NCBI GenBank assembly: GCA_963668035.1
Contig: OY764073.1
Coordinates: forward strand, 3,138,930 to 3,202,929
Direction: 5' to 3'
DNA: 64,000 bases
From: Candidatus Poribacteria bacterium
Lineage (GTDB): Bacteria; Poribacteria; WGA-4E; WGA-3G
In this document: piece by piece, positions 4,730 to 64,000 of the stretch
Numbering within the stretch: the first letter of the stretch is position 1
Layout of the letters: each line of letters begins with the position of its first letter
Position numbers and translations under genes: made by a program
The notes under the pieces: generated by a model
What the model saw: the letters and a program-made list of their open reading frames with translations, nothing else
Databases searched by the model: none
Told to the model about the DNA's origin: nothing

Positions 4730-4828
4730 GAAAATCGAACCTTATTAATAGTGGATAATTGTTTTTCGGCAGTATAGCATAAAGCCAACTATCCGTCAAG
4801 TGTTAATCCGCGAATGGCACAGTGCTAA

Positions 4829-6439: not shown

Positions 6440-6753
6440 GGTATAAACCTCCAGTATATTTAACCTAAGTTGCCACCTATTGATAGACATAGCACTCCTA
6501 CGGAGTGCGGTCGCTTAGATACACCGTTTCTATAGACATATCACCCCTACGGGGTGAGGAAAGTGCCTGACAAGTCTTGTGAAAACGTTAAAAACTTGTT
6601 AGTAGCAACTTGGGTTATATTTATTAGCGAAAGTTCCGATCTTGGAGATGACCGGAATCATTTTTTAATTTTTTCTGCTTCCGTTCTAAACACACACCTA
6701 TTGGAGAAAAAAGTTGCAAAAAAGTTCAAAAAAATGCATTGGGTGCGGTCTAT

Positions 6754-7104
6754 TCATTCCCGATTTGAAATTCGATCTACGTGTTCACGGACAATATGTT
6801 GCGGACATAATTTAATAAAGACCCATGCGCCGGGTACCAAGATCAGAAAAGCCCCAACAAAGAGGTCGTCAGCCCAACCGACGATGGGGAGAAAATCAAA
6901 GTCGAGGGGATTCACCAAGTAGGCAATCGCGAAGATAATCGCCAAGAATTCGGCGACAATAAGGATCGCCTTCCGATAGATAGGCACGCGCTCATCGAAA
7001 AACAGCCGCCACGTCAATTTGACGAAATTCGGGAGATGAAGGAGTAGGCGGAAAAGTTTAAAGGGGCCTCGCTTTTTACCGCCAAAGAAAAAAGGATTTA
7101 TCAT
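6754..7104 (-). CDS. DUF1232/YkvA-like small membrane protein.
   Basis: GGKKRGPFKLFRLLL...DFLPIVGWADDLFVGAFLIL resembles the DUF1232 signature. Confidence 0.55.
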   Translation of the reverse strand: MINPFFFGGKKRGPFKLFRLLLHLPNFVKLTWRLFFDERVPIYRKAILIVAEFLAIIFAIAYLVNPLDFDFLPIVGWADDLFVGAFLILVPGAWVFIKLCPQHIVREHVDRISNRE

Positions 7105-7267
7105 AATCTTAGATTTATCAAAACCGTACGAAAATAACGCATATATAGTATTTTGGTTAACAGTTTAATTCATTTTAGCATATCATTCAAGTTTTTATAT
7201 TGATAAAAAGATAACATGCACTGAAACGGAAGTCAAGTGAAAAGGAAAGCTGGATTCTGATAATGTC

Positions 7268-8349: not shown

Positions 8350-8423
8350 AACGGGGCGTGGCGCAGCCCGGAAGCGCGCTTGAATGGGGTTCAAGAGGTC
8401 GCTGGTTCGAATCCAGTCGCCCC
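8350..8423 (+). tRNA. tRNA-Pro (anticodon GGG).
   Basis: Hand-folded cloverleaf. Acceptor stem cggggcg/cgccccg, D stem gcgc/gcgc, anticodon stem cttga/tcaag, loop aTGGGGt with U33. T arm gctgg-ttcgaat-ccagt, discriminator A. The CCA is not encoded. Confidence 0.85.
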
Positions 8424-8488
8424 GATCTCTGATATGCAATTCGGTTTGTCAGCACGGCAAACGACAAGGAAAGGAGGGAGCTGTAATA

Positions 8489-13827: not shown

Positions 13828-15066
13828 GTGGAGCGTGTAGTTATTACAGGAATCGGCGTTGTCAATGCAATCGGCAACACGAAAGAAGAATATTGGGATG
13901 CGCTTGCTATCGGTAAAAACGGAATCGGACCTTTAACGTATTTTGATGCCTCCGAACATCGCACCCAAATCGCTGGAGAAGTAAAGGATTTCCAAGCGGA
14001 ACAGTATATGGATCGCCGAGCGGCCTCCAGGCTGCCTCTCTTTATTCAGTACGCGCTTGCGGCTGCAATTATGGCGCACGAAGATGCCGGTCTGGACCTC
14101 AACAAAGTGGACCCTTACCGGGCAGGGGTGCAAATCGGTTCTGGGATCGGCGGCATCGGTGTCCTTGAAGATAACGCAAAACTTCTTGCCGAAAAAGGTG
14201 CGAAACGGGTGAGTCCATTCCTTGTGCCGTACATGATTATTAACATGGCGGCGGGGCAGATCTCAATCCATTTTAACCTTAAAGGCCCCAATTCTACGTC
14301 CGTCACGGCGTGTGCAAGTGCGAACCATTCTATGGGAGATTCGTTTCATATCATTAAACGCGGCGACGCGGACGTGATGTTTACTGGGGGAACGGAGTCG
14401 GCGATTACGCCGTTAGCGGTTGCCGGGTTCTGTTCAATGCGTGCAATGTCGACGCGAAACGATGAACCTGAACGCGCCTCGCGCCCCTTCACAAAAGACA
14501 GAGACGGTTTTGTCATGGGCGACGGTGGCGGTGTCCTCATCCTTGAATCGCTGTCGCATGCCAAAAAGCGTGGTGCGCATATCTATGCGGAAATCATTGG
14601 CTATGGCATGACTTCAGATGCACACGATATGGTAAGTCCCCCTGAAAACGGCGAAGGTGCAGCGAAAGCGATGGAATTCGCGCTCCGAAGTGCGCAATTA
14701 CCGTTAGACGCTGTCGATTATATCAATGCGCACGGCACCTCCACACCTATCGGCGATGTCTCTGAAACGAACGCTATTAAAATGCTGTTCGGTGAACAGG
14801 CGTATAAAATCCCGGTGAGTTCTACGAAATCGATGGTGGGGCATCTGCTCGGTGCTGCTGGAGCCGTAGAACTGATCGCCTGCTTAGGTGCGATAGAGAG
14901 AGGTTATTTGCCGCCGACTATCAACTACGATATGCCGGACGAAGCCTGCGATCTGGATTACGTTCCGAATGAGAGTCGGGATGCGAAAATTTCGGTCGCG
15001 CTCTCTAATGCCTTCGGTTTCGGTGGGCACAACACCTCTATTGTTATCCGTAGATTTACAGGTTAA
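13828..15066 (+). CDS. fabF: 3-oxoacyl-ACP synthase II.
   Basis: KAS-II Cys-His-His active-site context, 412 aa, GTG start. Confidence 0.95.
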
Positions 15067-15084
15067 GTTACGGCATAACGGAGT

Positions 15085-15597
15085 ATGCCTACTACTATGC
15101 ACTTCGTCTATATCGGTTTTGGGAGCAACATTGACGATAGACTGGTGCATATCCAGAACGCTATCAACGCATTATCGGAAACGGAGGGAATTATGCTGCA
15201 AAAAGTTTCCTCCGTTTACAAAACCGAACCTATCGGTTATGAAGCGCAGGCAGAATTCCTGAACGGGGTCGCTGCAATTCAAACCGACTTCCCCCCCTTA
15301 TCTTTGTTACAGGTCTTAAAAGACATAGAGACGGCTATCGGTAGACAACACCGCATCCGTTGGGGACCCAGAGAAATCGACTTGGACATATTAATCTATG
15401 GCGATGTGTGTCTCCAGACCGAAAAACTCGTCATTCCACATCCAGAGATGCATCTTCGTCATTTCGTATTAGTTCCGTTAGCAGAGATCGCGCCCGACCT
15501 TGTGCATCCCGTTTTCCAAGAAACCATTCAAACCTTATGTAACTGCCTCGAAGATGATACATCTGTGTCCAAATCAGAATTTCTGATCGAAATTTAG
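15085..15597 (+). CDS. folK: 2-amino-4-hydroxy-6-hydroxymethyldihydropteridine pyrophosphokinase (HPPK).
   Basis: Motifs YIGFGSN, RWGPR and IDLDIL. Confidence 0.9.
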
Positions 15598-15600
15598 CTG

Positions 15601-15629
15601 TAGACTCCGATGCCGTAATATGATATAAT
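15601..15629 (+). promoter_or_regulatory. Possible promoter TAGACT-17-TATAAT for the AAA-ATPase gene.
   Basis: tagact 15601-15606, a 17-nt spacer, tataat 15624-15629. RBS AAGGAGG lies before ATG 15660. Confidence 0.3.
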
Positions 15630-15659
15630 TGTCTCAGTTGTTTCAAGGAGGATAGAAAG

Positions 15660-17249
15660 ATGAGATATTTTGAAACAAGGGGACCCGTACATCCTGAGGA
15701 TAACTATGTCGTCGCACGCACGGATGAACTCGCGGATTTTGTGAATCGATTAAAAAGGGGCAGGTACATCGTCCTCTTTGCGCCGCGCCAGACAGGTAAA
15801 ACCACATTTTTCCGAAACGCCCTCGACACATTGGAAGACCAAGAAGACACCTATTTCCCAATACAACTTAATTTTGAGGGATACGTAGAAAGCGATGCCA
15901 CTACCTTTTATACTTCACTCTCTGAAGAAGTATGTAAGCAAATTAGGAAAGTCTATCAACAACGCCAAGCGACTCCGACTGATCAGCTCACCCGTTTTTT
16001 AGCAGATGCGGAGATAACCGAACCTGTTTCAATGCGAAGGTTTTTTGAAGACCTTGGGGAACGCCTCGAACAACGGTTTGTTATGATTATTGACGAGTTT
16101 GATGCTATTCCGAAAGACGCGCTCAGAGGGTTCCTGCACGCACTTCGCCACATCTATATTTCAGGGAGAACACGATGTCCGCATAGCATCGGGATCATCG
16201 GTGTCAAGAACATCACACAGCTCAATTATGATCGTTCTATTTCGCCCTTTAACATACAAGATGAGTTCAAATTGCCGAATTTCACATTGGAACAGGTGGA
16301 AGAACTTTTTTCACAATATACGGATGAAGTCGGACAACCCTTTACACCTGAAGTCACCGAGTCCATTCACAAACAGACGGGTGGACAACCTGTGCTCATC
16401 AATCGTTTTGCGCAGATTCTGACCGAAGAAATGGGCATCCCCAGAAGCGAACCGATTGCAATGCAACACTTTTCAAAAGCACACGCCCAAGTGCTTCGCG
16501 AGGGTCACACGAACATCGATCACCTGGTAGCAAACATCCGTAAGGATCGTCGGTTTGAAGCGTTCCTCATGAAAATCGCCTCTTATGATGAAGGTGTGGA
16601 CTTCAACTTGGATAGTGACATTATCAGCGAACTTGCCACTTACGGTATTATTGCTGAAGGGGCTGACGGTATGTGTGAAATTGTCAACCCAATTTACCAG
16701 TACCGTATCCTTAGGACATTCAAACCGGTAGTGAACGGACTGGAGCGGGAGTATTTACCCGAAGACACTCGCGCGGGATTTCAGGATTATCTCACACTAG
16801 ATGGACAGATCCAGATGACAGCACTTCTTGATAACTTCCGGGATTTTATCGCACGCGCAGGCTTCAGGATCCTTCAGGTGCCCGATACGCCGCAAGAATA
16901 CGTCGGTCAGCACCTCCTTTTTGCATATCTAAGCGAGTTTGTCAAAATTGTGGGTGGGACTATGTACCTTGAGGTGCAAACAGGGCGCGGTAGAATGGAT
17001 ATCCTGATTCTCCACAGAAACCGGAAATACATCGTTGAAACGAAAATCTGGGGTGGAGATGGCCGGTATCAGACTGGCAAAGCGCAACTTGCCGCGTACG
17101 TTAAATCAGAGAAGGCCGTGGAAGGATATTACGTCGTGTTTGACCATCGCAACACGCCGGAAGCACGCGTAGAGACAGAACCTATAGATGGGTTGATCAT
17201 TAGGAGTTACGTGATTCCTGTGATTCAAGAACGTCCCTCAGATTCATGA
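15660..17249 (+). CDS. Predicted AAA-ATPase (ORC/Cdc6-like 'AAA-ATPase_like' N-terminal domain) fused to a C-terminal PD-(D/E)xK nuclease-like domain.
   Basis: Walker A APRQTGKTT and Walker B IIDEFD. The C-terminal segment RMDILILHRNRKYIVETKIWGG fits a D...E.K nuclease core. Confidence 0.75.
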   Translation: MRYFETRGPVHPEDNYVVARTDELADFVNRLKRGRYIVLFAPRQTGKTTFFRNALDTLEDQEDTYFPIQLNFEGYVESDATTFYTSLSEEVCKQIRKVYQQRQATPTDQLTRFLADAEITEPVSMRRFFEDLGERLEQRFVMIIDEFDAIPKDALRGFLHALRHIYISGRTRCPHSIGIIGVKNITQLNYDRSISPFNIQDEFKLPNFTLEQVEELFSQYTDEVGQPFTPEVTESIHKQTGGQPVLINRFAQILTEEMGIPRSEPIAMQHFSKAHAQVLREGHTNIDHLVANIRKDRRFEAFLMKIASYDEGVDFNLDSDIISELATYGIIAEGADGMCEIVNPIYQYRILRTFKPVVNGLEREYLPEDTRAGFQDYLTLDGQIQMTALLDNFRDFIARAGFRILQVPDTPQEYVGQHLLFAYLSEFVKIVGGTMYLEVQTGRGRMDILILHRNRKYIVETKIWGGDGRYQTGKAQLAAYVKSEKAVEGYYVVFDHRNTPEARVETEPIDGLIIRSYVIPVIQERPSDS

Positions 17250-32021: not shown

Positions 32022-33524
32022 CTATAATAAAAGTCCTTGCTCCGCCATCTCAATAGCACTGAGCAAAGCCCACGCCTTACTCATCGTTTCATAATACTCA
32101 TTTTCAGGCACCGAGTCCGCAACGACACCGCCGCCCGCTTGCACATAAGCGGTGCCATCTTTGATAACCGCGGTTCGGATTGTGATCGCCGTGTCCGCAC
32201 TGCCGGAGAAACTGAAATAACCGACCATGCCGCCGTAGGTGCCGCGACGTGTCGATTCCAGTTCGTCAATGATCTCCATCGCGCGTATCTTCGGGGCACC
32301 AGAGAGTGTGCCTGCGGGGAGGCATGCGCGGATCACATCGAAAGCCGTGAAATTTTCGCGCAACCGTCCAATAACGTGTGAAACGATGTGCATCACGTGC
32401 GAAAAGCGTTCGACTATCATCAGGTTGGTAACTTCAACGCTGTGATATTCACAGACGCGCCCGAGGTCGTTCCGTCCTAAATCGACGAGCATTACATGTT
32501 CCGCCCGTTCCTTCGGATCGGAAATTAGAGCCTGTTCTAATTCGCGATCCTCTTCGGGTGTCTTACCCCGTGCGCGTGTGCCGGCGATCGGAACCGTCTG
32601 CACAATCCCATCTTCTACGCGCACCATCATCTCTGGCGACGCGCCCACAATATCAAAGCTCTCCAGTTTCAGGTAATACATATACGGGGACGGGTTCACC
32701 ACGCGTAACGCCCGATAGATGTCAAACGGGTCCACAGATACCGGACGACTGAACCGCTGCGAAGGCACAACCTGTATGATGTCGCCTGCTGCGATATATT
32801 CCTTCGCACGCCGGACGACTGCCTCGTAAGCGGGTTGTGTGAAATTTGAATGCGGATCCGGCACAGTTTCAGGCGGATTATGCAAACGAGCCTCTCTATC
32901 ACCCCTCAAATGTGTTTCGGGCGTAGCTATGAGTTTTTCGACCAATGCCTCAATTTTCGCAACGGCATCGGCATAGGCAGCATTGACATCTCCATCAATA
33001 TGCGCGTTGGCAACAATCTTAATCTGATGGTTGACATGATCGAACACCAGCAGCGTCTCGGCTATCATGAAAAAGCAATCTGGAAGTTGCAGTTCATCTT
33101 CGGTAGTGTCAGGCAATTCCTCGACGAAGCGCACCATATCGTAGCTCATATAACCGACAGCACCGCCGTGGAACTGTGGCAACCCTTCAATATCGACAGG
33201 TTGGTACTTCTGCATCACTTCTTCAAGGGCCGACAGCGGATCCTCGTATTCCTGCGATACTGTTTCGCCTTTTTCTAAATATTCAATCGTAACCCGATGT
33301 CCCTTACTCTGAAAGAGTATGGATGGCTGGCTCCCCAAGAAAGAGTAGCGTGCGACGTTCTCACCGCCCTCCACACTCTCTAATAAGAACGCATAATTAT
33401 CAGGCATCAACTTATAGAAAGCGGACACCGGTGTCTCCATATCCGCCAAAATCGGGCGATAGACCGGCACTGTGTTTCCTAATTTCGCTTTCTCTTGAAA
33501 TTCCTCCAACGTTGGATAATACAT
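32022..33524 (-). CDS. trpE: Anthranilate synthase component I.
   Basis: Chorismate-binding domain motifs (GAPKIRAMEII, RGTYGGMVGYF), 500 aa. Confidence 0.9.
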   Translation of the reverse strand: MYYPTLEEFQEKAKLGNTVPVYRPILADMETPVSAFYKLMPDNYAFLLESVEGGENVARYSFLGSQPSILFQSKGHRVTIEYLEKGETVSQEYEDPLSALEEVMQKYQPVDIEGLPQFHGGAVGYMSYDMVRFVEELPDTTEDELQLPDCFFMIAETLLVFDHVNHQIKIVANAHIDGDVNAAYADAVAKIEALVEKLIATPETHLRGDREARLHNPPETVPDPHSNFTQPAYEAVVRRAKEYIAAGDIIQVVPSQRFSRPVSVDPFDIYRALRVVNPSPYMYYLKLESFDIVGASPEMMVRVEDGIVQTVPIAGTRARGKTPEEDRELEQALISDPKERAEHVMLVDLGRNDLGRVCEYHSVEVTNLMIVERFSHVMHIVSHVIGRLRENFTAFDVIRACLPAGTLSGAPKIRAMEIIDELESTRRGTYGGMVGYFSFSGSADTAITIRTAVIKDGTAYVQAGGGVVADSVPENEYYETMSKAWALLSAIEMAEQGLLL

Positions 33525-33714
33525 GAGTAGCTCCTTATGTAGTTATCAGTTTTCAGTTATCAGTTATCAGTCTGGTTTTTGATTCACCAATACCTTTTCG
33601 CACGCTTGTTACGTTTATGGGTAACAACGGTTACCAAGGGATCGTCAAGCATTAGAAACCTCTTAACCGAAAACTGAAAGGTTTTTCGCAGAAAACCGAA
33701 CTGACGACTGACAA
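33525..33714 (-). repeat. Intergenic inverted-repeat element, copy C, in the same orientation relative to transcription as A and B.
   Basis: On the minus strand it reads ttgtcagtcgtcagttcggtttt...cagttttcggttaagagg ... cagactgataactgataactgaaaactgataactac. It lies between hisI and trpE. Confidence 0.75.
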
Positions 33715-34092
33715 CTATTTTCCCTCTGCTTCAAAAACCTTATCGCTTATAACACGCGTTGACTCGCCGTCGGGGGAGACTTCCCGAAAAAAGCAGGAGC
33801 GGTAGCCGACATGGCACGCTGCGACCTTCTGCTCGACTTTGATGAGGAGGGCATCACCGTCACAATCCACTGCGACGGACTCAACTGTCTGTGTATGCCC
33901 TGAAGTCTCCCCCTTAATCCACAGTTTTTGGCGGGAGCGACTCCAGAAGCAGACGCGTCCTGTCGTCAGCGTGTGCGTTATCGCTTCGGCGTTCATATAA
34001 CCGACCATCAGCACTTCGTTGTTGGTGCGATCCTGAATCACTGCGGCGACCAAGCCATCACGGTCATATTTGAGTTCGGATAGAATTTTCAT
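33715..34092 (-). CDS. hisI: Phosphoribosyl-AMP cyclohydrolase.
   Basis: LVAAVIQD, MVGYMN and CDGDALL(I) motifs, 125 aa. Confidence 0.9.
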   Translation of the reverse strand: MKILSELKYDRDGLVAAVIQDRTNNEVLMVGYMNAEAITHTLTTGRVCFWSRSRQKLWIKGETSGHTQTVESVAVDCDGDALLIKVEQKVAACHVGYRSCFFREVSPDGESTRVISDKVFEAEGK

Positions 34093-34247
34093 GTTGGTTC
34101 TCCTTTTAAAAGCAAAAAACCTTATGCAGCTTCGGATTCGTGTGCATAAGGCTTAAAATTCAGAAATAAAAAACGACGATTTTCAATCTCTACTTTAGCT
34201 ATCCATTTAAGCGCACACTCCTCCGCAAGCAGTTGGAATGCCACCAA

Positions 34248-34310
34248 TGCCAATGGATAACGATGCTATGCAAGTTGGAATGTGAACGTGGAGGTATCAT
34301 TTTTCTCACT
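34248..34310 (+). repeat. ~55-bp dispersed direct repeat, copy 1 of 2 (copy 2 at 35268-35325).
   Basis: gatgctatgcaagttggaatgtgaacgtggaggtatcatttttctcac aligns with gatgctatatgagttggagtgtgaatgtaaaagtgtcattcttctcgc. Confidence 0.7.
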
Positions 34311-34359
34311 TTTTCGGTAAAATATTTGGTTCCAAACCGTAATAATTTAGCAATTCTTG

Positions 34360-34728
34360 TTAGTGACTTATCAAATAGAGGTTCACTGCAATAATTAATA
34401 CATTTAGGGCATAAAATCCCACATCCGTTTTTCCAGCGGAATGTCCAGGATTCGCGTGCGCGCTCGGTGTGTGGGGCGGAACGAAAGCGTTGTTTCCTGT
34501 CATGGTGGACTGCGTCTTCGTATGTTCTTCACTGACAACCTTCATCTCATAGTCCCCTGTTTCAGGATTCTTTACCAGCTGCTCTACTACTGTATGCGTT
34601 TCTGTCGTCATCATAGGTACAGCCGGTGTCGTTTGTGTATGTGTCGTGCTGGCACAACCGTGAAGAAGTATTAACATCAGAACGATACTTGTGCAGTAAA
34701 AGACTGTAAACACGCTCACATGTTTCAT
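34360..34728 (-). CDS. Hypothetical small lipoprotein.
   Basis: Signal peptide with lipobox LLHGC and a Thr/His-rich mature region. Confidence 0.5.
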   Translation of the reverse strand: MKHVSVFTVFYCTSIVLMLILLHGCASTTHTQTTPAVPMMTTETHTVVEQLVKNPETGDYEMKVVSEEHTKTQSTMTGNNAFVPPHTPSAHANPGHSAGKTDVGFYALNVLIIAVNLYLISH

Positions 34729-34864
34729 TTTTCTCCCCCTTTTCCCAAATTATCTTTTCGCAAGAGTGCATGATTTGCTAAGTACGTGGTTACATGAACC
34801 GAGGCGTTAATATTATTAATGATACCATATCTAATCTGCGTTGTCAAATTTTTTGTGGGTATCG

Positions 34865-35015
34865 GTTTCGCTGGTGCGTAAAGTTTTTGGCATGCAAGGG
34901 TGAAAGCCAATTTTCTTTGGTAGTGTCCGTCTTTAGTCCCGTAGGGACATCATGTTTATAGAGATGTGTTTTAAAACAAAAGCTTAGCCCTGTAAGGGCG
35001 AAATGTTTATCGGGT
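34865..35015 (+). repeat. Dispersed repeat carrying the hairpins GTCCCGTAGGGAC and GCCCTGTAAGGGC (related copies at 38150-38360).
   Basis: tagtcccgtagggacatcatgtttatagag and ttagccctgtaagggcgaaatgtttat both recur near 38.2 kb in both orientations. Confidence 0.7.
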
Positions 35016-35028
35016 TGGATCAGTCGTG

Positions 35029-35267
35029 TAGGTTGGGTTGAACGGAAATCAGAAGATAGAGATGATCTGCAAAATACACCTATATCAAACCTGACCGCTT
35101 TCAAAATCAAAAATCCATTGAAACCCAACTTCATACCGCCAGGGGTTCCAGAAAGCACAAAGACGTTGGGTTTCACTCGGTCTCTGGTTAATGTGTCGCC
35201 CCTTGAGAAAGTTTCGCTTTTCTCTGATTTGTCCGTTTTTTATTCTATCCGTTCAACCCAACCTACT
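35029..35267 (+). repeat. Perfect 18-bp terminal inverted repeat (gtaggttgggttgaacgg / ccgttcaacccaacctac) flanking ~200 bp with no ORF; possible small MITE.
   Basis: The two IR arms sit at 35029-35046 and 35250-35267. Confidence 0.5.
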
Positions 35268-35406
35268 ACTGATGCTATATGAGTTGGAGTGTGAATGTAA
35301 AAGTGTCATTCTTCTCGCTTTTCAATAACAGTTGACAACCGCCAAATATTTGGATTTATTCACGCTAAACTTTTAACAGGGGTGCCAAATAGCGCACTTG
35401 TCTATT

Positions 35407-36348
35407 TCACTGACTATCATCTTGATTCTTTGCAGTCTCAGTCACGATTTGAATTGCTGCCACTGTCGCCGCGGACTTAATCAACTCTTGCGCCGTCTGC
35501 GATTCAGCCATGGTTTTGATAACTTCAACAGCTGCTTCTGCTTCCGCAATTTCAATAGGAACCCGCGCTTTGGCAATCTCCGCTGCCGCTTTCGCCTCGG
35601 CAACCTCAACAGGAACTCGCGCTTTGGTAATTTCAGTGATGGCAGCCGCCTCAGCAACCCTAACCTGTTTAGTAGCCTCGATACGTTCCGAATCCGTTTT
35701 AGCCTGCAACCGCATCTGAACCGCACCGATCAGTGCTTGAAGCTTTGTTTCCTCAATGGAAGATTCAGCGAGAATTCTTGCTTTCTCCGTATCCGCCTTC
35801 ATCAAAATCTTAGCCTTTTCCAAGTTGGTATAAGCTTGTGTCTTTGAAACATCTGCACCTATTTGCGCCCTGACAACTTCGGCATAAGCACGAATCTGGG
35901 CTTTCTGAATCTCGGCATCTGCACGAATCTGAGCGGTTTTCACTTGCGTATCTGCACGAGTCTGGCCTTCCGTTACATCGGCATCTGCGCGGATCTGGGC
36001 TTTGGTAACCTCGGCATCCGCGCGGGCTTTTGCCGCTTCGGTCCGCTCTTGTTCCTTCGCTATCTCTGCCTGAGCACGCGCTTGTGCGGCTTCCGTCCGC
36101 TTCTGTTCCTGTGCGACTTCCGCATCCGCGCGGGCTTTTGCCGCTTCGGTCCGCTCTTGTTCCTTCGCTATCTCTGCCTGAGCACGTGTCTTTGCCTCCT
36201 CTTTTCGAGCATCAGCACGGACTTTCTCCTTCGCGACTTGCCCGCCCTGTTTGACTGCTTCTTCCATTAAACGGCTTTTCGATGGAACACATCCCACAAT
36301 TATAATGAATGAAAGTGACGCAAAAAAACATAAAATTTTCTTAAACAT
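35407..36348 (-). CDS. Repetitive Ala/Glu/Lys/Arg-rich coiled-coil lipoprotein.
   Basis: Signal peptide MFKKILCFFASLSFIIIVGC (lipobox), then 36-aa periodic repeats (ARADAEVAQEQKRTEAAQARAQAEIAKEQERTEAAK...). Start ATG 36348 has RBS GAGAGGA. Confidence 0.6.
   Translation of the reverse strand: MFKKILCFFASLSFIIIVGCVPSKSRLMEEAVKQGGQVAKEKVRADARKEEAKTRAQAEIAKEQERTEAAKARADAEVAQEQKRTEAAQARAQAEIAKEQERTEAAKARADAEVTKAQIRADADVTEGQTRADTQVKTAQIRADAEIQKAQIRAYAEVVRAQIGADVSKTQAYTNLEKAKILMKADTEKARILAESSIEETKLQALIGAVQMRLQAKTDSERIEATKQVRVAEAAAITEITKARVPVEVAEAKAAAEIAKARVPIEIAEAEAAVEVIKTMAESQTAQELIKSAATVAAIQIVTETAKNQDDSQ
36011..36186 (-). repeat. 108-bp periodic near-identical tandem repeat inside the lipoprotein gene.
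   Basis: The 68-bp segment 36011-36078 matches 36119-36186 almost exactly. Confidence 0.8.
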
Positions 36349-38469: not shown

Positions 38470-38648
38470 TGAATAAATTAACGGTTCAGGTGCCGGAGAG
38501 AGCCGGAGAATAGGGAAGCGCGGTGAGAATCCGCCACGGCCCCGCCACTGTGAACGATTGCAAATACCCACTGAAAAAACCACTGTCAATTAATTGATGG
38601 GAAGGTTCAGCGGACGCAAGATCGGAAGTCAGGAGACCTGCCTGGATC
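38470..38648 (+). ncRNA. Cobalamin (AdoCbl/B12) riboswitch aptamer.
   Basis: It matches the conserved core recalled from memory: ...AATAGGGAAGCGCGGTGAGAATCCGCCACGGCCCCGCCACTGTGAACG... the B12-box GCCACTG ...GGGAAGG... GAAGTCAGGAGACCTGCC. Confidence 0.8.
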
Positions 38649-38786
38649 GTGTTTCACACTTATGCTTTCGCGGGAAAGCAGCGGAACAGCGCACAGCAGT
38701 ATCCTGTTAGAAGCCGTAGGGGCGGGGTTTCCCCGCCTGATAAATCACGCAATTGCAGGATTAACATTATACAAATGTCGCCTTGT

Positions 38787-38824
38787 CCCCTGCCTTTTCT
38801 ATGAAAGCAGGGGTTTCTTGTTTC
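38787..38824 (+). terminator. Intrinsic terminator (riboswitch expression platform): stem CCCCTGC/GCAGGGG followed by TTTCTTGTTT.
   Basis: Hairpin cccctgc-c-ttttctatgaaa-gcagggg, then a U-rich tract. RBS GGAGG and ATG 38840 lie downstream. A second GC-rich hairpin (aggggcggggtttccccgcct, 38718-38739) could be an alternative structure. Confidence 0.6.
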
Positions 38825-38839
38825 ATTACGGAGGTTTTA

Positions 38840-40123
38840 ATGAACAATACTTTTTTTTCTCGGCGGCATTCCTCAGGCACGCTTCTGCTTTCGCTGGTAA
38901 GTGCGCTCATCTTCACGTTCCTCGTCAGTCCTACTTTTGGACAAACAGATGTCCAAAATCTCGCCGTTATTATCAATGCTTTGGATAAAGACGACTTGAA
39001 CATCACCTCAACACTCTCGCTTATAGATCTCGATGAACCAAATGCGAAACGCGCTGTCGACCATGAAATACTGACAATCGGTGATGTCCCGAATGGGCTG
39101 CTGATTCACGGACACCTCGCTTACATCTGCCGTTTCGATTGGATTTCCGGGGATCTCAGCGACAGCGTTTTAATCGTTAATCTGGAACAGCGGACAATTA
39201 TTGGTCATATCCCGATTGCCCCCGGTGCGTATCCGCAAAGTCTCGCGCTGGTTAGTCCAAACAAAATGTACGTTACGTGCGATAACGTTCATGAGGTACA
39301 CGTCATTGACATCCCGAGCCGCAGTGTAACGAAAATCATCACGGATTCGTCCTTCAACAAAACGACCGGTATTACGCTGCTTAACGGCAAGGCGTACGTG
39401 ACGAATCCTGCTTGGGAGTGGGATGCAGCAACGGGCAAATCTGTCTATCACGATAGCAGCGTCACGGTGATTGATACCGAGACAGATACCGTTCTAAAAT
39501 CCATCCGGATGCCTATAAATGCAGGTGGGATCCTCAACGATGGCGAATCTACTGTGATTGTCCGGACGACAGGCGATTACAATCTGGTTTCCGGGAACAT
39601 TGTCCTCATTGATGCGACTACCGATGAAATTATCAAAACGGTTGATCTCAAGACGACACCCGGCGCGTTTGCAATCAATTCACAGAAACAGCTCTTTATT
39701 CAGAGTGGCTGGCAGAATCCGGGTTTGCTGATCTACGATGTGCCGACCCAAAAGTGGATTCGAGATAAGAAGAGTGCGCTCGCCGAATTCGCCGGAGGTG
39801 CCGGGATGACTTTCGGACCAGACGGGAATCTCTACATCACCAAACCCGACTGGACCGGTGGTGGACTCTCTACTGTTCTTGTCATGGCACCAGATGAAAC
39901 CCTGATCAAGACCTACCAAGCCGGACACGGGACCGACAACATCGGTATTGTCCAAATTGTGCCGCGCCGCGAGGATGTCAATGATGATGGATTTGTCAAT
40001 TTCGAAGACCTAACCATCGCGAGCCGATTCCTCGGAAGTTACGGACCCGGCATAATCGCCGATGTCAATAGCGACGAAGTCGTTAATGTGCTTGACCTCG
40101 TGCTGATCGCACAGGAATTTTAG
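38840..40123 (+). CDS. Secreted YVTN/YncE-type beta-propeller protein with a C-terminal type-I dockerin repeat pair.
   Basis: Signal peptide MNNTFFSRRHSSGTLLLSLVSALIFTFLVSPTFGQ and repeated blade motifs (YVT, D..T.(K/T).I). Dockerin DVNDDGFVNFEDLTIASRFLG...DVNSDEVVNVLDLVLIAQ. It is the first gene after the riboswitch. Confidence 0.7.
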   Translation: MNNTFFSRRHSSGTLLLSLVSALIFTFLVSPTFGQTDVQNLAVIINALDKDDLNITSTLSLIDLDEPNAKRAVDHEILTIGDVPNGLLIHGHLAYICRFDWISGDLSDSVLIVNLEQRTIIGHIPIAPGAYPQSLALVSPNKMYVTCDNVHEVHVIDIPSRSVTKIITDSSFNKTTGITLLNGKAYVTNPAWEWDAATGKSVYHDSSVTVIDTETDTVLKSIRMPINAGGILNDGESTVIVRTTGDYNLVSGNIVLIDATTDEIIKTVDLKTTPGAFAINSQKQLFIQSGWQNPGLLIYDVPTQKWIRDKKSALAEFAGGAGMTFGPDGNLYITKPDWTGGGLSTVLVMAPDETLIKTYQAGHGTDNIGIVQIVPRREDVNDDGFVNFEDLTIASRFLGSYGPGIIADVNSDEVVNVLDLVLIAQEF

Positions 40124-57813: not shown

Positions 57814-58380
57814 TCAAAGGACCTTCAACGCTGCTTCATATTTATCTCTAACAAGGTCTTGGACATCTGCTCGTAACTTCTGCCAGCTCCGCTCTAACTT
57901 TGCCTTGACCCATAGCCTACCTTCATCAATTCCCATGCCGTGATGGATGTATGCCAAGTATAAAAGCGACGGAGCTTGTTCAATATGGGACATAGCATCC
58001 GCATTGGCAAGACATTCACCCTCCGCGCTCCGATGTTCTATGACGACACTCGCTCGGTGTGTTGCGATGGCGTGTTTGACAGCATCCGTTTTTGCTTTCG
58101 GATAGCCGAAACGTTTAAGCAGTTTCTCCGCTTCAATCGGACTGTGGATATGATGCTCGGCATAAAGTGCTTCGTCCTTGATACTGGCGTAATCGTGGAG
58201 CAGTGCTGCAAGTTCCACAATTTCGGGATCAGCATTAAAACGTGAGGCAAGCCGCTTTGTGTTTTCAACAACTTTCAGAATGTGGTGAGTCCAAATGTCG
58301 TAACCGAAGATGTTGGTATCCGCGGCACAAGCTTGTTCAACAATTTTTTCAATATTGCTCCTGATAGTTTCGATCGACAC
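57814..58380 (-). CDS. HD-domain phosphohydrolase.
   Basis: H...HD motif context: HHILKVVENTKRLA...AALLHDYA. Confidence 0.75.
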   Translation of the reverse strand: MSIETIRSNIEKIVEQACAADTNIFGYDIWTHHILKVVENTKRLASRFNADPEIVELAALLHDYASIKDEALYAEHHIHSPIEAEKLLKRFGYPKAKTDAVKHAIATHRASVVIEHRSAEGECLANADAMSHIEQAPSLLYLAYIHHGMGIDEGRLWVKAKLERSWQKLRADVQDLVRDKYEAALKVL

Positions 58381-58440
58381 TTTTTCAAGACCCTCCTCAT
58401 AATTATTTTTTGCGACAACCTCCTCCGAGACCCCAAGGAA

Positions 58441-59025
58441 TCACGCAGATTCATCAGTAGTTACAAGTCCCAGCTGCTCCAGAAAGGAAAGGACATTTTT
58501 GATAGACTCTTTGTCTATTTTCCAGTTGTACTCTTCGGCAATCTGCTGAACTTGCGGGAGTGTAAGTGGCCCGTTTCCTTCCCAACTGACAATGTAATGG
58601 ACCTTTGCAGCAATAGAAAGTTTATTAGAATCACAAGCAAGCTTTTGATCATTGATAAATTTAAGTTTCTGACTCCATTCGTCAAAATCAGGTTTTCCCT
58701 GTGCAGCACTCCAGACCTCTTCAGCGACTTCGGGTATTATCGAATAGATATAAGTATGCTTGCGAATTTCACCCCAAGGCGTTTGCTCACCTGATGCAGT
58801 CGCAAAAGACTCTGTGGTCTCTTTAAGGACTCCATAATTGACTAAACCATCCAGATGAGCAGCAACAAAACTGCTGTAGGGACCATAGTAATGCGGGGTA
58901 AACCCTAAATCAACATCCATTAGCACCGACAAAAAATAGATTTTCTTTTGGAGGAGCGTTCTGCCCCGCAGTCCATTTTCACCTTCGTTTTTCACAACAA
59001 GTAGAAGGATATCAATAATGTGCAT
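58441..59025 (-). CDS. Hypothetical 194 aa protein, 12 nt downstream of the dGTPase-like gene.
   Basis: ORF with good coding appearance. No motifs were recognised. Confidence 0.5.
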   Translation of the reverse strand: MHIIDILLLVVKNEGENGLRGRTLLQKKIYFLSVLMDVDLGFTPHYYGPYSSFVAAHLDGLVNYGVLKETTESFATASGEQTPWGEIRKHTYIYSIIPEVAEEVWSAAQGKPDFDEWSQKLKFINDQKLACDSNKLSIAAKVHYIVSWEGNGPLTLPQVQQIAEEYNWKIDKESIKNVLSFLEQLGLVTTDESA

Positions 59026-59037
59026 GTCATCTCCCTA

Positions 59038-60435
59038 TTAAATACTACGCAAAATTTCTTGAATTTCACGTTTCTGCGTCTCTGATACCTGATATGGTGC
59101 ATAGACCTGAACTGCTTCCAAGGCGGAAACATCGGTGGAGGGTCTTACGAAAAACAACTCGTTTGCATAGTCAATCATACGCCTTAGTCCGTTTTGATCT
59201 TCGTCAAAAATCATGATTGCCTCTGGATTAAGTAAATTGGTCGGAATTCCGTAATTTTGGGTCCGAATCGGCGGTTTACTCACAACCACATAAGCAGCAT
59301 TAAGATCAAGATATTCTGCAATTTCTGCTTCACACCGCTGCTTCCGTTCCGTATCCGCTAACATCTCATCAAGTCGTGAGTGAAGCAGGACATCCCTCTC
59401 ATCTTTGAATCTGAGTTCGGAAATTATTTTGAAGAGTTTTCTGTTGTAAAGTCGACCAAAGATTTCTTTGGTTTCTGTTGGGAGGGTTCCTTCAAGATCG
59501 CTTTTCAAAATCCCTATTACCTTTTCATCATGATAATTGAGATAGTTCTGAATGAACCCTTTTTTCCTTTGTTCATAATCTTGCTCGGATTCTTCGTTAT
59601 TTTTTTCAGGATAGCGGTAAAGGTTTGTCATTTCGGGATTGTTTGCATCAATTGCAAGCGTAATTCCGCGCACAATCATTTCATTAGAAATGAGACTAAC
59701 ACGGTGCCAATATACTTGCTGGGTCATGTGATATCGCGCAAGTAAAAGTTGTTCAAGTGCGTAGATTGCTGTGCTTTTAATTGCAAGCGGTGTCACTGAG
59801 TTCTCAAGGATAAAACATGCTTCAATTAGTTTTTCCAGATCGTACAACCCATATTTAACACCAGCAAAGTAAGAGTCGCGCAAGAGATAATCCATTTTAT
59901 CTGCGTCTAATTCACTGGACACAATATCTCTTTTCCAATCCCATGCCTTCTTTTTACCTTCTATCATCTCTATCACGAAATCGCGTTCAGTATCACTCAG
60001 AATTTCGTTGATTTCCGGATCCATTCGAATAATATCAACAGTAATTTTCTCATGTATCTTTTCGCGAATTTGTTCCTTATTGGGTGTATTAGCGGCATAC
60101 TTTTCTAACAGATATTCAGAAACATGACTAAAGGGTCCATGTCCAACATCATGCAGCAACGCCGCAAGTCGAACCCGATCCACATCTTCATTGTATATTC
60201 TTCTTGGATGTAATTCTCGGAGCCTGGTGCAAATGCGCCCAGCAATATGCATCACACCAATTGAATGATCAAAGCGTGTATGGACAGCGCCCGGATACAC
60301 CAGAAACGTCATCGCCAACTGTCGGATCCGACGAAGCCGTTGGAACACTTTGGTGTCAATAAGTTTTTTTTCTATTTTAGAAAGTTTGATAAACCCGTGG
60401 ATAGGGTCTCTCATTTCATGCGGTCGTTCTGTCAT
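59038..60435 (-). CDS. dGTPase/SAMHD1-like HD-domain dNTP triphosphohydrolase.
   Basis: N-terminal DPIHGFIKL...IDTKVFQRLRRIRQL...VYPGAVHTRFDHSIGV, then LLHDVGHGPFSH. Confidence 0.8.
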   Translation of the reverse strand: MTERPHEMRDPIHGFIKLSKIEKKLIDTKVFQRLRRIRQLAMTFLVYPGAVHTRFDHSIGVMHIAGRICTRLRELHPRRIYNEDVDRVRLAALLHDVGHGPFSHVSEYLLEKYAANTPNKEQIREKIHEKITVDIIRMDPEINEILSDTERDFVIEMIEGKKKAWDWKRDIVSSELDADKMDYLLRDSYFAGVKYGLYDLEKLIEACFILENSVTPLAIKSTAIYALEQLLLARYHMTQQVYWHRVSLISNEMIVRGITLAIDANNPEMTNLYRYPEKNNEESEQDYEQRKKGFIQNYLNYHDEKVIGILKSDLEGTLPTETKEIFGRLYNRKLFKIISELRFKDERDVLLHSRLDEMLADTERKQRCEAEIAEYLDLNAAYVVVSKPPIRTQNYGIPTNLLNPEAIMIFDEDQNGLRRMIDYANELFFVRPSTDVSALEAVQVYAPYQVSETQKREIQEILRSI

Positions 60436-60575
60436 ATTAAAATTATACCACTATTTAACAAGTAATTCAAATTTATTTTCTCGAGTTTTGGATTTTTCCG
60501 ACTTTTCGCGGATTAGAGCATACACATAAAACCTATCCAAGAATGGAAAAACTTTACCAAAGTGGCGCTTACGAA

Positions 60576-62294
60576 TCACTCACCAAAGATGTCCTCGTGC
60601 AGCTCGTCATAAACCTTCATGCCGGGTTGAACAAGCGGGGCAAGAATATCTCTCATGAAACTTTCTGCTGTATCCCCACTATGAACTAACCCTAAAATTT
60701 CCTCTGCTTGCTGCTGAATACGTTGAACAATAGGTCGCCGTTTGTCGTGAATCTCATCATTTTTCATGACCTTTTCGATTTCTCTATCCTTCGCCTCAAG
60801 AAAATCCTGGATCTTATCAGATTTCCCTTCACGCACACACAACTGTGTCAACACCTCATTATCTATGAGGTACTTTTCAATATATTTGCGCGATAAAGTC
60901 CGGATCCCCTTTTCGGCGTTATTTGCTATATCCTGCTCGGTTGCGCGGTCTCTATCTCGGAGCCTGAGGATCCCTGCACCCCCGGCAATTGCCTTAATGA
61001 CAGGAATCAAATGTGTGTCAGTTTTGTCTACATCTCCCCTTCCACCGACGGAAACAAAACGTGTATCAGGATAATGGCTCCCAAAAATCTGATTATAGCA
61101 GGCAGCATCAAAGCCTTTGGTAGGATCTTGTGCCTTGCTTTCACAGAGCACAATCCGCTGAGGTGCTATCAATTCAGCAAGGTCACCGAGAGCAACTTCA
61201 TAGGTTTGTGCCCAGAAGTTTGGATCGGGAGTGACGGGGGTAAGTGTTACCGGTTCGTCAAAATCGTGACCACCGAAATCAAGAAATACAACCGAACCTG
61301 GATCTTCACGCCAGAGGTCTCGCGCTTTGCGGACCATGCCGATGGAATGTGTGGCAATCCAAAGTTGAGAGGTGTCAGGGATAAGGTGGTAGAGTTCTTC
61401 CAGAAGCTGACCCTGAAGTTTCGTATGGATATGGGCTTCTGGTTCGTCAATGCAAATTATCATTTCATCGTCCTCAGTCTTCGTGACGATAACATCCAGA
61501 AGTAAGTCCAATGCAGCCTTCTCACCGCTTGCCAGATTCTGATATGTAAACCTCTCACTTGTCCCCTTATCAAATTCAAAAAGGTCACCATCTGTGGGAT
61601 GTCCAAGGCTCCTTAAAACTAATGGTGGATCGGTGAATAGTCTACGCATTGCGTCCCGGAGTTCACCAAAAAGTTCGTTTTGAAGATCGGTTAAATTTTG
61701 GTCACTTTCTCCAATTTCTGAGCTACGTTCTAACCATTGAGAAGCCAAATACCAACAGTTTAATGCAAAAGTCTGATCGTTCTCCGTGAGCCGAACAAGG
61801 CTGCCTTCCTGCAATGGATCATGTCTACTAACAATGGGAGGTTGAGTCACTGAATAGTTCCTGTACGCGGAACGGACATGCATAATTTTTTCCCACTCGC
61901 GCGTTAACCCTTTACCATGAAATTCCATTTTTAAATCATCGCCTAAACGGTATAGCGGGTTAATAAGCGTAGCAGTAAAATAAGAGGACCTTCTGTCATT
62001 TAGGGTTTGATTTAAGGATCCGTAGTAAGAATAACGATGTCTTCTTTCATCAGATTTGAAATAGTACTCCAGAAGTTGGTAATCGTCATCCGATATTATC
62101 CCTTGATCCGATATTATCCCTTGACCGACAGCATTGGGGAAACAGTCCCACAGTTTTAGTGCATCAAACACCGAAGATTTACCACACCCATTCGGACCTA
62201 TCATCACCACGAGCTTTGCTGTTTCAGGCAACCCTTCAATAGTCAAATCCGTGAAGCGTTTGAAATCCTTTAGCTCAATCGATTTTATCTTCAT
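60576..62294 (-). CDS. OLD-family-like protein: N-terminal ABC/SMC-type ATPase with a C-terminal Toprim/DUF4435-like domain.
   Basis: Walker A GPNGCGKSS, signature-like LASGEKAAL, Walker B ICIDEPEAHIH, H-loop IATHS. C-terminal RIVLCESKAQD...FDAACY...GGRGDVDKTD...RLRDRD (E...D, DxD). Its ATG lies 5 nt after the MTase stop. Confidence 0.75.
   Translation of the reverse strand: MKIKSIELKDFKRFTDLTIEGLPETAKLVVMIGPNGCGKSSVFDALKLWDCFPNAVGQGIISDQGIISDDDYQLLEYYFKSDERRHRYSYYGSLNQTLNDRRSSYFTATLINPLYRLGDDLKMEFHGKGLTREWEKIMHVRSAYRNYSVTQPPIVSRHDPLQEGSLVRLTENDQTFALNCWYLASQWLERSSEIGESDQNLTDLQNELFGELRDAMRRLFTDPPLVLRSLGHPTDGDLFEFDKGTSERFTYQNLASGEKAALDLLLDVIVTKTEDDEMIICIDEPEAHIHTKLQGQLLEELYHLIPDTSQLWIATHSIGMVRKARDLWREDPGSVVFLDFGGHDFDEPVTLTPVTPDPNFWAQTYEVALGDLAELIAPQRIVLCESKAQDPTKGFDAACYNQIFGSHYPDTRFVSVGGRGDVDKTDTHLIPVIKAIAGGAGILRLRDRDRATEQDIANNAEKGIRTLSRKYIEKYLIDNEVLTQLCVREGKSDKIQDFLEAKDREIEKVMKNDEIHDKRRPIVQRIQQQAEEILGLVHSGDTAESFMRDILAPLVQPGMKVYDELHEDIFGE
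62089..62124 (-). repeat. Perfect 18-bp in-frame tandem duplication inside the ATPase gene (it encodes QGIISD twice).
   Basis: tccgatattatcccttga occurs twice in tandem. Confidence 0.85.
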
Positions 62295-62299
62295 ATATC

Positions 62300-64000
62300 T
62301 TACGCCTCCTTATCTTCAACGCCATAGAGTGCTGCAACTTTCTTATCCAATTTCTTTTCAAGACGAACTACCTTTCTCTCAAGACCTTTCCGCTTGGCAG
62401 CAAGAATCTTATCAACTACTTCAACAACCGGTGCCTGCTGCTCAGCCGACACATCCGGGATCGGTAGTTTTTTCCAATCGTCAGGGTAGAGACGAATATT
62501 GTGGCGGCGATTTTCCCTCAAAAAGTTACCAGGAACAGTAGAATTCATCACACCCAATAGGAATTTTAGAGAAAACCGGTTACTGGTTTGCTCCAGTTCC
62601 TCCCGTTGCGGTAAATCTGGACGTTTCGGTTTTTCGTCACGATAACGTGTCCGTTGTTTAATCGATCTGTTCCGGACCCCTGCTAAGCTGTGCCATGGGA
62701 TAAAACAGTATGCTGAATCGTTGTGATAGAGAAATTGATTGTCATAAGCAACGCGTAATTTTTCCACATTAGCAGCTATGGTAATTGAGATTAACTTTTC
62801 TTCAACTTCATATAATTCCGGGAATGTTCGGCGACGAAACAAGGCAGGCGCGCGTGCTGTCCCCCATTCTAACCATTTATTCCGATCAGGCAGCCACCGT
62901 GCAAGATACTTCCCTTCTACAAACGGTTTCGGATGGCGTTCATCCCTTACGTCTGAAACGACATCTCTCAAACCAAATTCGCCATGTGCCCTTTTTTCAT
63001 CGCCATGTACAACCATACCGACACTAATATAGCAAATTTGGTCAAGCGTTATTGTTGGAACTGTGAATTGCTGTGCAACGGCATCTTCAGGAAAAAAAGT
63101 CCGTTGCGTCAGGTTCTGTTGTTCGTCCGTTGGTAAAAGATGCACTGCACCAAATACAGGGTCATGTACACGCCGTTCAGGCTTGTTATCGCTCCCCTCC
63201 GCTTGTTGAAAAAGATAGATAACATTTTTCACAGAAGCTTCAAAAATCTGAATCTTGCCGAGGAAATCAAGCCTCCGTATCTTGCTTTTATTCAGAAACC
63301 ACGCTTGCGATTTCAAGGCGTACTTCGCATGGCAATAGGCATCAGAGACAATCAACGTTGTAAAACCGCCGGGCTTGAGCAGTCTGTAACTCCGTTCAAT
63401 AAACGGGATATACAGATCCCACTTCTCATAAAGCGTCTCATACTGTTTGCTGTCCTTAATCTCCTGACGCATTACCCTAATTTTTTCTCGCAATATAGGG
63501 TCATTTCCGCCTGCATCTGCCCTGACATAAGGCGGATTGCCAATCGTAATATCAAATCCATCCGTGATACCGAACATCCACTCCGGATCGAAGAAACCCG
63601 CTGCAGCATTCTGGTTATACGGATCCCACTCAGCAATGCGTTTTGCCTCGGCAATCCCTACCGTGAGTTTCGCCTCGCGCACCTCGTATGCCTTTTCCAA
63701 TTTTTCCCGTAATTGTCGTTGGGCTCGCGCCTTCGGGACCTGTTCTACCCATGCCGAGATTCTGTTTTGCTCCTGCTGGCACCACGTCTCATGCTCCGTT
63801 GCTAATACGTCCGCCAATTGCTCCCGGTACTTCTCCTCATCTTCTATATATTGCAACTTGACTTGACGGTTGTTCTCGCTGAAATACCTGACACGGATCC
63901 TCTCAATCTCCTGCCGTAATTGTTGAATGATGTCATTGTCCAGCAACAACTGTACGTCAGGTTCGCTCAATTCCTTCAAACCGATAAGCGTATTCGCAGA
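62300..64000 (-). CDS. N6-adenine DNA methyltransferase (gamma-class/Eco57I-like, NPPY motif, TaqI_C-like C-terminal target-recognition region). The 5' end is cut by the window edge.
   Basis: Motif IV ITIGNPPYV; motif I is not present in-window. The reading frame stays open to position 64000, so the N-terminus lies beyond the window. Confidence 0.75.
   Translation of the reverse strand, partial: SANTLIGLKELSEPDVQLLLDNDIIQQLRQEIERIRVRYFSENNRQVKLQYIEDEEKYREQLADVLATEHETWCQQEQNRISAWVEQVPKARAQRQLREKLEKAYEVREAKLTVGIAEAKRIAEWDPYNQNAAAGFFDPEWMFGITDGFDITIGNPPYVRADAGGNDPILREKIRVMRQEIKDSKQYETLYEKWDLYIPFIERSYRLLKPGGFTTLIVSDAYCHAKYALKSQAWFLNKSKIRRLDFLGKIQIFEASVKNVIYLFQQAEGSDNKPERRVHDPVFGAVHLLPTDEQQNLTQRTFFPEDAVAQQFTVPTITLDQICYISVGMVVHGDEKRAHGEFGLRDVVSDVRDERHPKPFVEGKYLARWLPDRNKWLEWGTARAPALFRRRTFPELYEVEEKLISITIAANVEKLRVAYDNQFLYHNDSAYCFIPWHSLAGVRNRSIKQRTRYRDEKPKRPDLPQREELEQTSNRFSLKFLLGVMNSTVPGNFLRENRRHNIRLYPDDWKKLPIPDVSAEQQAPVVEVVDKILAAKRKGLERKVVRLEKKLDKKVAALYGVEDKEA

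Follow-up and report, generated by a model that had tools for sequence, protein, structure and literature searches.

The PARIS defence system, whose AriA and AriB components also exist as fused proteins, senses the anti-restriction protein Ocr (PMC11464382), and OLD-ABC/TOPRIM backup modules have been catalogued in BREX and BREX-related (BR) loci (PMC12839542). One ABC-TOPRIM fusion, HEC-04, is embedded in the Hma system and gave defence in Escherichia coli (10.1101/2024.01.29.577857). A precedent for a different kind of effector, a deoxynucleoside triphosphate (dNTP) hydrolase (dNTPase) that is restrained by a partner, is provided by Clover, which comprises the CloA dNTPase and the CloB nucleotidyltransferase (PMC12265719). 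Here we compare with these systems a locus at positions 57,814 to 64,000 of a 64,000-nucleotide stretch from a Candidatus Poribacteria bacterium (assembly GCA_963668035.1, contig OY764073.1, positions 3,138,930 to 3,202,929), hereafter the window. The locus encodes the end of a DNA methylase, a 572-amino-acid (aa) ABC ATPase/Toprim protein, a 465-aa HD phosphohydrolase (HD465) and a 194-aa protein. We consider it probable that these genes, together with a helicase gene upstream of the window, form a layered restriction-type defence island, in which a helicase-nuclease and methylase backbone carries two add-on modules, the ATPase and the HD465/194-aa pair.

The original prediction for this DNA, made from the sequence letters, described a defence-island-like cluster of five genes. 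All five open reading frames (ORFs) lie on the minus strand at the positions that it gave and the defence-island label is supported, but only four of them belong to the island. These are the methylase ORF (62300-64000; the C-terminal 567 codons, open to the window edge), the gene for the 572-aa ABC ATPase-DUF4435/Toprim protein (60576-62294), the gene for HD465, a SAMHD1/EF1143-type enzyme (59038-60435), and the gene for the 194-aa, YwgA-like protein (58441-59025); a spacer of 140 nt (60436-60575) separates the ATPase and HD465 genes. The fifth gene (57814-58380) encodes a 188-aa HD-domain protein with likeness to 2pq7 and YedJ, orthologues of which are 80-87% identical across approximately 100 protein clusters. 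In the sibling loci L078 and L079 the orthologue occupies the same site in the same flank, with DUF4432/DUF3352/BCCT genes on one side and a variable spot on the other, beyond which the 213-aa, SBP56, DUF362, SIS and BcrAD genes follow as in the window, and the island genes are absent. Because it is conserved and sits at this site without the island genes, the small HD gene is a core gene that marks the island border, rather than a member of the cluster. The other four ORFs constitute a low-GC mobile island that was probably horizontally acquired and inserted beside this core gene, as indicated by the GC content of the four genes (0.41-0.46, compared with 0.49-0.51 in the flanking genes and elsewhere in the window, a comparison that the original prediction had proposed), from the empty site in L078 and L079 and from the occurrence of the module set in several different flanks among the ATPase-linked loci.

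The spot that separates the 188-aa HD orthologue from the 213-aa gene also varies in content (L078:9642-11947, L079:9672-13857). One of the two siblings carries DUF4268 plus a ParE toxin/antitoxin pair there, and the other an IS605 OrfB/TnpB gene and an aminoglycoside-resistance-like gene.

Metagenome contig L001 (ENA ERZ23495465), obtained through an exact-protein look-up of the ATPase, extends the locus upstream; throughout their 2-kb overlap the contig and the window are near-identical, apart from a few scattered substitutions. On L001 the full methylase gene (3482-7177) encodes 1231 aa, and directly upstream of it lies the gene for a 1077-aa HKD (PLD) nuclease/SNF2 helicase. This protein contains PLDc_2 (1.6e-10), SNF2 (2e-13) and Helicase_C (6.5e-13) domains, with an SNF2/ResIII core and an HxK...GSSN motif at its N-terminus; its best PADLOC model is 'HKD+Snf2' (6e-124), and the HmaA model matches the helicase core only (1.5e-23). 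The location of this helicase implies that the partner of the methylase would be an ATP-dependent restriction subunit. Full-length homologues of the helicase, with approximately 40% identity, were found on 118 plasmids, where the operons comprise a regulator, the helicase, a DUF4391 protein, a methylase and a DEAD/DEAH helicase. BLASTP detected no similarity between the methylases of these plasmid operons and the 1231-aa methylase, nor between the plasmid DUF4391 proteins and the methylase N-terminus, the sole link being a weak DUF4391-like stretch in the Pfam search (methylase residues 126-224).

The original prediction had instead paired the methylase with the ATPase, as the modification and OLD-like restriction halves of an atypical restriction-modification (RM) system, and had named beforehand a restriction partner upstream of the methylase as the contrary case; L001 carries exactly such a partner, in the form of the HKD-nuclease/SNF2 helicase. 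The two genes are indeed tightly coupled, since 5 nt separate the methylase stop codon from the ATPase ATG, as predicted, with AAGGAGG just upstream, and they co-occur strictly in close relatives, both of which would suit a methylase/OLD pair. However, the dedicated HKD nuclease/SNF2 translocase stands immediately upstream in every such locus, the helicase family partners methylases on the 118 plasmids without an ATPase of the 572-aa type, helicase-methylase pairs free of the ATPase exist in a gammaproteobacterial metagenome-assembled genome (L039/L040), and tRNA, rather than unmodified DNA, is the reported target of PARIS-type Toprim effectors (PMC11464382, PMC12839542). We therefore regard the methylase/OLD pairing as very improbable, and treat the helicase-nuclease and the methylase as the likely backbone of the island.

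The methylase itself is a predicted gamma-class N6-adenine DNA methyltransferase of the Eco57I family (Pfam Eco57I, 1.5e-28 for the full protein and 1.7e-20 for the part within the window). Its NPPY motif (63527-63538, minus strand), which had been recognised originally, is followed by a variable target-recognition region and then by a TaqI_C-like end, the predicted specificity domain being present as a weak Pfam match; motif I (DPAVGSGAF) is located upstream of the window, on L001, and a long helical insert precedes NPPY. Residues 1 to approximately 920 are common to the methylase orthologues and the recognition region differs among them, the pattern expected if specificity is exchanged. The methylase N-terminus lies outside the window, as anticipated. 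A type IIG RM enzyme was rejected because a search with domain and PADLOC models revealed no nuclease family in residues 1-213, although the protein agrees with the PADLOC type IIG model in its methylase and recognition parts (5e-59, with the alignment running from model position 194 on).

The 572-aa protein was correctly read from the start as an ABC ATPase with a C-terminal Toprim/DUF4435-like region. All of the ABC motifs are present on the minus strand: Walker A (GPNGCGKSS, residues 33-41; 62172-62198), the ABC signature (SGEKAA, residues 256-261; 61512-61535), Walker B (DEPEAH, residues 283-288; 61431-61451) and the H-loop (ATHS, residues 314-317). They are followed by the predicted Toprim glutamate (E385, within 61137-61148) and the DxD motif (D447 and D449, within 60942-60959), and each of these motifs is invariant in 19 orthologues. 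Pfam matches are AAA_15 (1.7e-19), AAA_21 (2.6e-16) and DUF4435 (0.0097), the last of which is detected in 10 of the 19 orthologues with a best value of 8.4e-14, and an AlphaFold2 (AF2) model has a beta-alpha-beta core in which strand 1 is followed by the glutamate and strand 3 by DxD. The best PADLOC match is AriAB (2.3e-29), ahead of AriA (1e-20) and of GajA (1e-11), which aligns with the ATPase end only. These matches suggest that the protein is a fused, single-chain PARIS-like AriAB of the same kind as HEC-04. Of the 'OLD-like' description, the ABC ATPase part holds, whereas sequence kinship to P2 Old, BpOLD or GajA does not (OLD E 0.37, GajA as above). Gabija was rejected, as there is no UvrD-like helicase gene (GajB) in the window, where its absence beside the ATPase gene had already been noted, in L001 or in L032-L038.

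The perfect 18-bp in-frame tandem duplication noticed in the ATPase gene is real, being recovered both by Tandem Repeats Finder (period 18) and by direct reading (62088-62123, minus strand). It encodes QGIISD twice, in a variable insert after the Walker A helix that is modelled with a pLDDT of <50 at residues 53-65, and it is also present in L001 and absent from 18 homologues of the ATPase.

The genomic contexts of the ATPase were compared across loci. The helicase and methylase genes lie directly upstream in seven of the seven loci with an ATPase that is at least 53% identical, a co-occurrence that partly reflects shared descent because these loci were found via the ATPase and may be mostly from one lineage (several are named Candidatus Poribacteria). 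More distant relatives of the ATPase in other phyla, with 28-41% identity, are found between hsdS and hsdR of type I RM systems (L004, L005, L011 and L012), and others have D12 plus AlwI, Mrr or a small methylase of the Eco57I type as neighbours, or are surrounded by housekeeping genes. Islands retrieved through the 194-aa protein include helicase and methylase genes without the ATPase (L039/L040 and L080) and one with an ATPase remnant only (L042). Since pair-containing islands without the ATPase exist, the ATPase behaves as an add-on, and our reading is that it is probably a self-contained ABC-Toprim module that lodges in restriction-type operons and has become fixed after the methylase in this lineage. 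A metagenome scan with the ATPase alone as query yielded no match.

Several of these loci are rearranged. In L042 a 589-aa ORF (3970-5739) matches the HKD-SNF2 N-terminus joined to the ATPase, which looks like a fusing deletion with loss of the methylase, and L042 looks like a decaying copy of the island. After the ATPase of L035 (11686-13321), and also in L036, a cNMP-binding/CAP12-PCTIR TIR protein and a 231-aa gene replace the HD pair and are followed by FRG-TPR; the position after the ATPase in these two loci is another variable cargo slot. In L038 the first ABC ATPase is followed 3 kb downstream by another one (420 aa; AAA_15, AAA_21, DUF2813) with a 287-aa partner (14786-16908), and this partner is not a relative of the 572-aa protein's Toprim half.

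The second module consists of HD465 and the 194-aa protein. HD465 is a predicted dNTP triphosphohydrolase of the SAMHD1/EF1143 type. It matches the Pfam families HD (3e-16) and HD_assoc_2 (8.5e-19) and, in the PDB, 2hek (3e-46), 9mr6 (1e-38), EF1143 (2o6i, 1e-37) and SAMHD1 (approximately 2e-27), and as in enzymes of this type the H...HD...D metal site and the GHGPFSH and DxxDYxxRD motifs are intact. On the minus strand, its conserved motifs are encoded at 60262-60282 (HTRFDHS), 60124-60159 (LLHDVGHGPFSH) and 59875-59910 (LDADKMDYLLRD). The earlier term 'dGTPase-like' is imprecise, given values of 1e-27 to 3e-46 for the EF1143, 2hek and SAMHD1 group compared with only 7e-4 for E. coli Dgt. Nor is HD465 a housekeeping dgt orthologue, a possibility raised in the original prediction. 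An anti-phage dGTPase of the Dgt type was likewise rejected, because HD465 scores 29.2 bits against the NCBIfam antiphage_dGTPase model, the cut-off of which is 400 bits, and the PADLOC dGTPase model covers residues 24-115 only.

The 194-aa protein, described originally as having no recognisable domain, does have a recognisable fold. A PadR/MarR-like winged helix at the N-terminus is joined to a helical domain, and the full-length protein is a structural homologue of the C-terminal, DarT-binding domain of DarG (PDB 7yk3), with a sequence identity of 15%. The function of this DarG domain is reportedly toxin binding (Deep et al. 2023, Structure, as cited in PMC12170906). Panacea/DUF4065 was considered for this family and dropped in favour of the DarG C-terminal domain, since Pfam analysis of 37 members gave no support. 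The family comprises approximately 1,000 clusters at 50% identity, nearly all of them stand-alone proteins of approximately 185 aa, and two homologues carry the JGI label 'YwgA'. A metagenome scan with the family alignment retrieved 31 loci, at 28-45% identity, and an HD465 homologue is directly beside the 194-aa homologue in every one of the 23 loci that leave room for a neighbour, the two genes mostly overlapping or lying a few nucleotides apart. The 194-aa protein is therefore an obligate partner of the HD gene. A tblastn search of plasmids with the 194-aa protein gave no match.

Transcription of the pair may start separately from that of the methylase and ATPase genes. A consensus scan of the 140-nt spacer identified a sigma-70-like site (TTGAAT-17-TATAAT with TG, 60470-60442), which is a possible promoter for HD465 and the 194-aa gene; the site is weak evidence because the region holds fewer such sites than shuffled sequences give.

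The HD pair recurs in a variety of settings. In L056 it is located inside an Hma/BR-1 system (SNF2-NOV_C helicase, HD, p185, DUF1156 methylase, DUF499 ATPase), in L066 between the genes of a type III-like pair (ResIII helicase, HD, p196, N6_N4 methylase) and in L051 inside a type I RM system (RhuM, HD, p185, HsdS, Schlafen). It adjoins type I and type ISP enzymes in L054 and L068, lies beside an integrase in L045, and is placed between an HKD-SNF2 helicase and a methylase in L034 and L080. In L039/L040, helicase and methylase genes are followed directly by HD-p187 with no ATPase between them. The 194-aa gene is tandemly duplicated in L080 (9388-9957 and 10001-10570), between helicase and methylase, and is likewise present in two copies in L034; the methylase of L080 (10712-14285) is in three pieces.

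No PADLOC v2 or NCBIfam model describes the HD465/194-aa pair, for which PADLOC v2 gives partial dGTPase and DarG matches only. We found no description of a pair of this type in the literature searched, which is not proof of novelty, and in the literature on YwgA, COG1078, DUF4391 and ywfO we found no link with defence. It is possible, and we put this forward tentatively, as a working idea rather than an expectation, that an HD465-type enzyme and a DarG C-terminal domain-like protein make up an uncatalogued, autonomous two-gene anti-phage module that spreads by inserting itself into restriction operons of the helicase/methylase kind (type I, type III-like, Hma/BR and HKD-SNF2/Eco57I), the small protein being an antitoxin or sensor that keeps the dNTP-depleting enzyme off until infection.

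A number of observations weigh against the layered, modular interpretation. Both the helicase gene and the N-terminus of the methylase lie outside the window and were taken from L001, a near-identical contig of a different assembly, and the seven close loci were retrieved through the ATPase. A profile of the ATPase run against PDB sequences gave a marginal match to AriA of E. coli B185 (E 0.006) and otherwise generic ABC matches only, with no OLD relationship (6p74). The methylase and ATPase genes are tightly coupled, even overlapping by 4 nt in L032 and L038, and the ATPase could accordingly be an integral third subunit instead of an autonomous module. Taken further, the helicase-nuclease, methylase, ATPase, HD465 and 194-aa proteins could form one integrated machine with the ATPase and the HD pair as obligate subunits, a counterpart of Hma/BR whose parts are not orthologous to those of Hma/BR. 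The tight coupling, the helicase-methylase-ATPase triad in all seven close loci, the insertion of the HD pair in L034 and L080 at the junction of the helicase and methylase genes, and the location of all genes on the same strand would fit such a machine as well. We think it unlikely, however. L039/L040 combine helicase, methylase and HD-p187 without the ATPase, whereas in L035, L037 and L038 the triad is present and the HD pair is missing. Both the ATPase family and the HD pair are also seen in unrelated RM settings or by themselves, and the spacer with its promoter-like site precedes the HD gene.

Other points against the modular interpretation concern the function of the HD pair. SAMHD1-family HD proteins include housekeeping enzymes, such as those like YwfO, which even minimal genomes retain (PMC4993169). 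The winged helix at the N-terminus of the 194-aa protein is also compatible with a plain transcription regulator, and in L071 the HD pair has housekeeping neighbours (glycerate kinase, pterin-binding). Together with the 'YwgA' label and the lack of a PADLOC v2 model, these observations would be accommodated if the pair were not a defence system at all, but a housekeeping enzyme of nucleotide-pool or nucleic-acid metabolism with a winged-helix regulator, carried as a passive rider in variable regions. The pair is also the one that is lodged repeatedly in restriction-type systems in the loci described above, and we judge the housekeeping explanation to be quite unlikely. On balance, a restriction-type backbone with two add-on modules remains the interpretation that we consider probable.

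In the mechanism that we propose for this layered island, activities, triggers and any communication between modules are drawn from homology and analogy. Host DNA would be marked by the methylase, which would also confer sequence specificity through its variable recognition region, and the HKD-nuclease/SNF2 helicase would act on unmodified DNA, translocating along it and cleaving it. As a backup to this restriction layer, the ATPase part of the 572-aa protein may, by analogy with PARIS, detect some product of the phage, such as a DNA mimic with an anti-restriction role, and sensing would free the Toprim nuclease activity and lead to abortive infection. HD465 would deplete dNTPs, and its 194-aa partner may bind it and keep it inactive until infection, much as the DarG C-terminal domain reportedly restrains DarT, or may act as a sensor.

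The island illustrates layered immunity, in which a restriction-type backbone carries backup modules in or after the operon, and here several copies, some rearranged and some in decay, allow the layering to be traced. The HD/DarG C-terminal domain-like pair, with its strict two-gene linkage and its repeated embedding in four classes of restriction-type systems, is the more useful lead. Should the pair be a defence system, bacterial immunity would gain a SAMHD1-like dNTPase that is restrained by a protein, and the toxin-binding domain of DarG would be shown to be a portable regulator that has been reused against a quite different class of toxin.

Elsewhere in the window, the sole tRNA gene, for tRNA-Pro (GGG), is far from the island (8352-8425, plus strand). 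A cobalamin riboswitch (Rfam RF00174, 112.8 bits) is located at 38471-38659 on the plus strand, upstream of the ORF at 38783-40123, and a stretch of approximately 1.9 kb (33524-35407) contains no ORF of at least 150 aa and has a GC content of 0.44-0.45, which is below the window average.

With regard to known systems, DISARM and BREX were rejected, since DrmA plus DrmB (DUF1998) and PglZ plus BrxC are absent from all loci and only partial matches to DrmD, DrmMI and PglX were obtained, and MADS was rejected on weak mad3 and mad5 matches only. The backbone resembles type-2 BR/Hma systems (PMC12839542, PMC8565338, PMC11232893) in combining an HKD nuclease-SNF2 effector with an N6-adenine methylase as self-marker. 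It differs in that neither a DUF499 ATPase nor DUF3780 is listed in L001 or L032-L038, DUF499 being detectable by the same route, as it was found in L056, and in that the methylase is of the Eco57I family rather than the DUF1156 type. Plasmid HKD-SNF2/DUF4391/methylase/DEAD-helicase operons, such as those of Acinetobacter sp. NEB149 pMsp65 and Desulforapulum pHRM2a, share the full-length helicase, whereas their methylase is unrelated by BLASTP, they have an extra DEAD/DEAH helicase, and they contain neither an ABC-Toprim protein nor the HD pair.

The 572-aa protein resembles PARIS in having an AAA_15/AAA_21-type ABC ATPase followed by a predicted DUF4435 Toprim region with conserved glutamate and DxD, in the fused arrangement that PARIS allows besides separate proteins, and in adjoining a restriction-type system, as expected of an anti-anti-restriction backup. 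It differs in its marginal similarity to AriA, in the failure of sequence comparison to detect AriB, and in being stably coupled to one RM-like operon in this lineage instead of residing in P4/P2 hotspots. With HEC-04 it shares an ABC ATPase and a predicted Toprim domain in a single polypeptide within a helicase-methylase defence operon, and the spacing from glutamate to DxD is 62-64 residues in the 572-aa protein compared with 56-58 in HEC-04. However, HEC-04 is not among the best 25 PADLOC matches listed for the 572-aa protein, so that the likeness is claimed for the architecture, and the host operon here is not Hma.

The HD pair contains the fold of the DarG C-terminal domain, and DarTG was rejected because the DarT toxin and the DarG macrodomain were not found; the partner here is an HD phosphohydrolase, and the identity to DarG is the 15% given above. 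Like Clover and Dgt-type systems, the pair joins a predicted HD-superfamily dNTPase to a gene that may restrain it, but in contrast to Clover this partner is a non-enzymatic protein like the DarG C-terminal domain rather than a nucleotidyltransferase. Set beside these systems, the ATPase appears to be a further member of a known ABC-Toprim kind, and the HD/DarG C-terminal domain-like pair a candidate new module.

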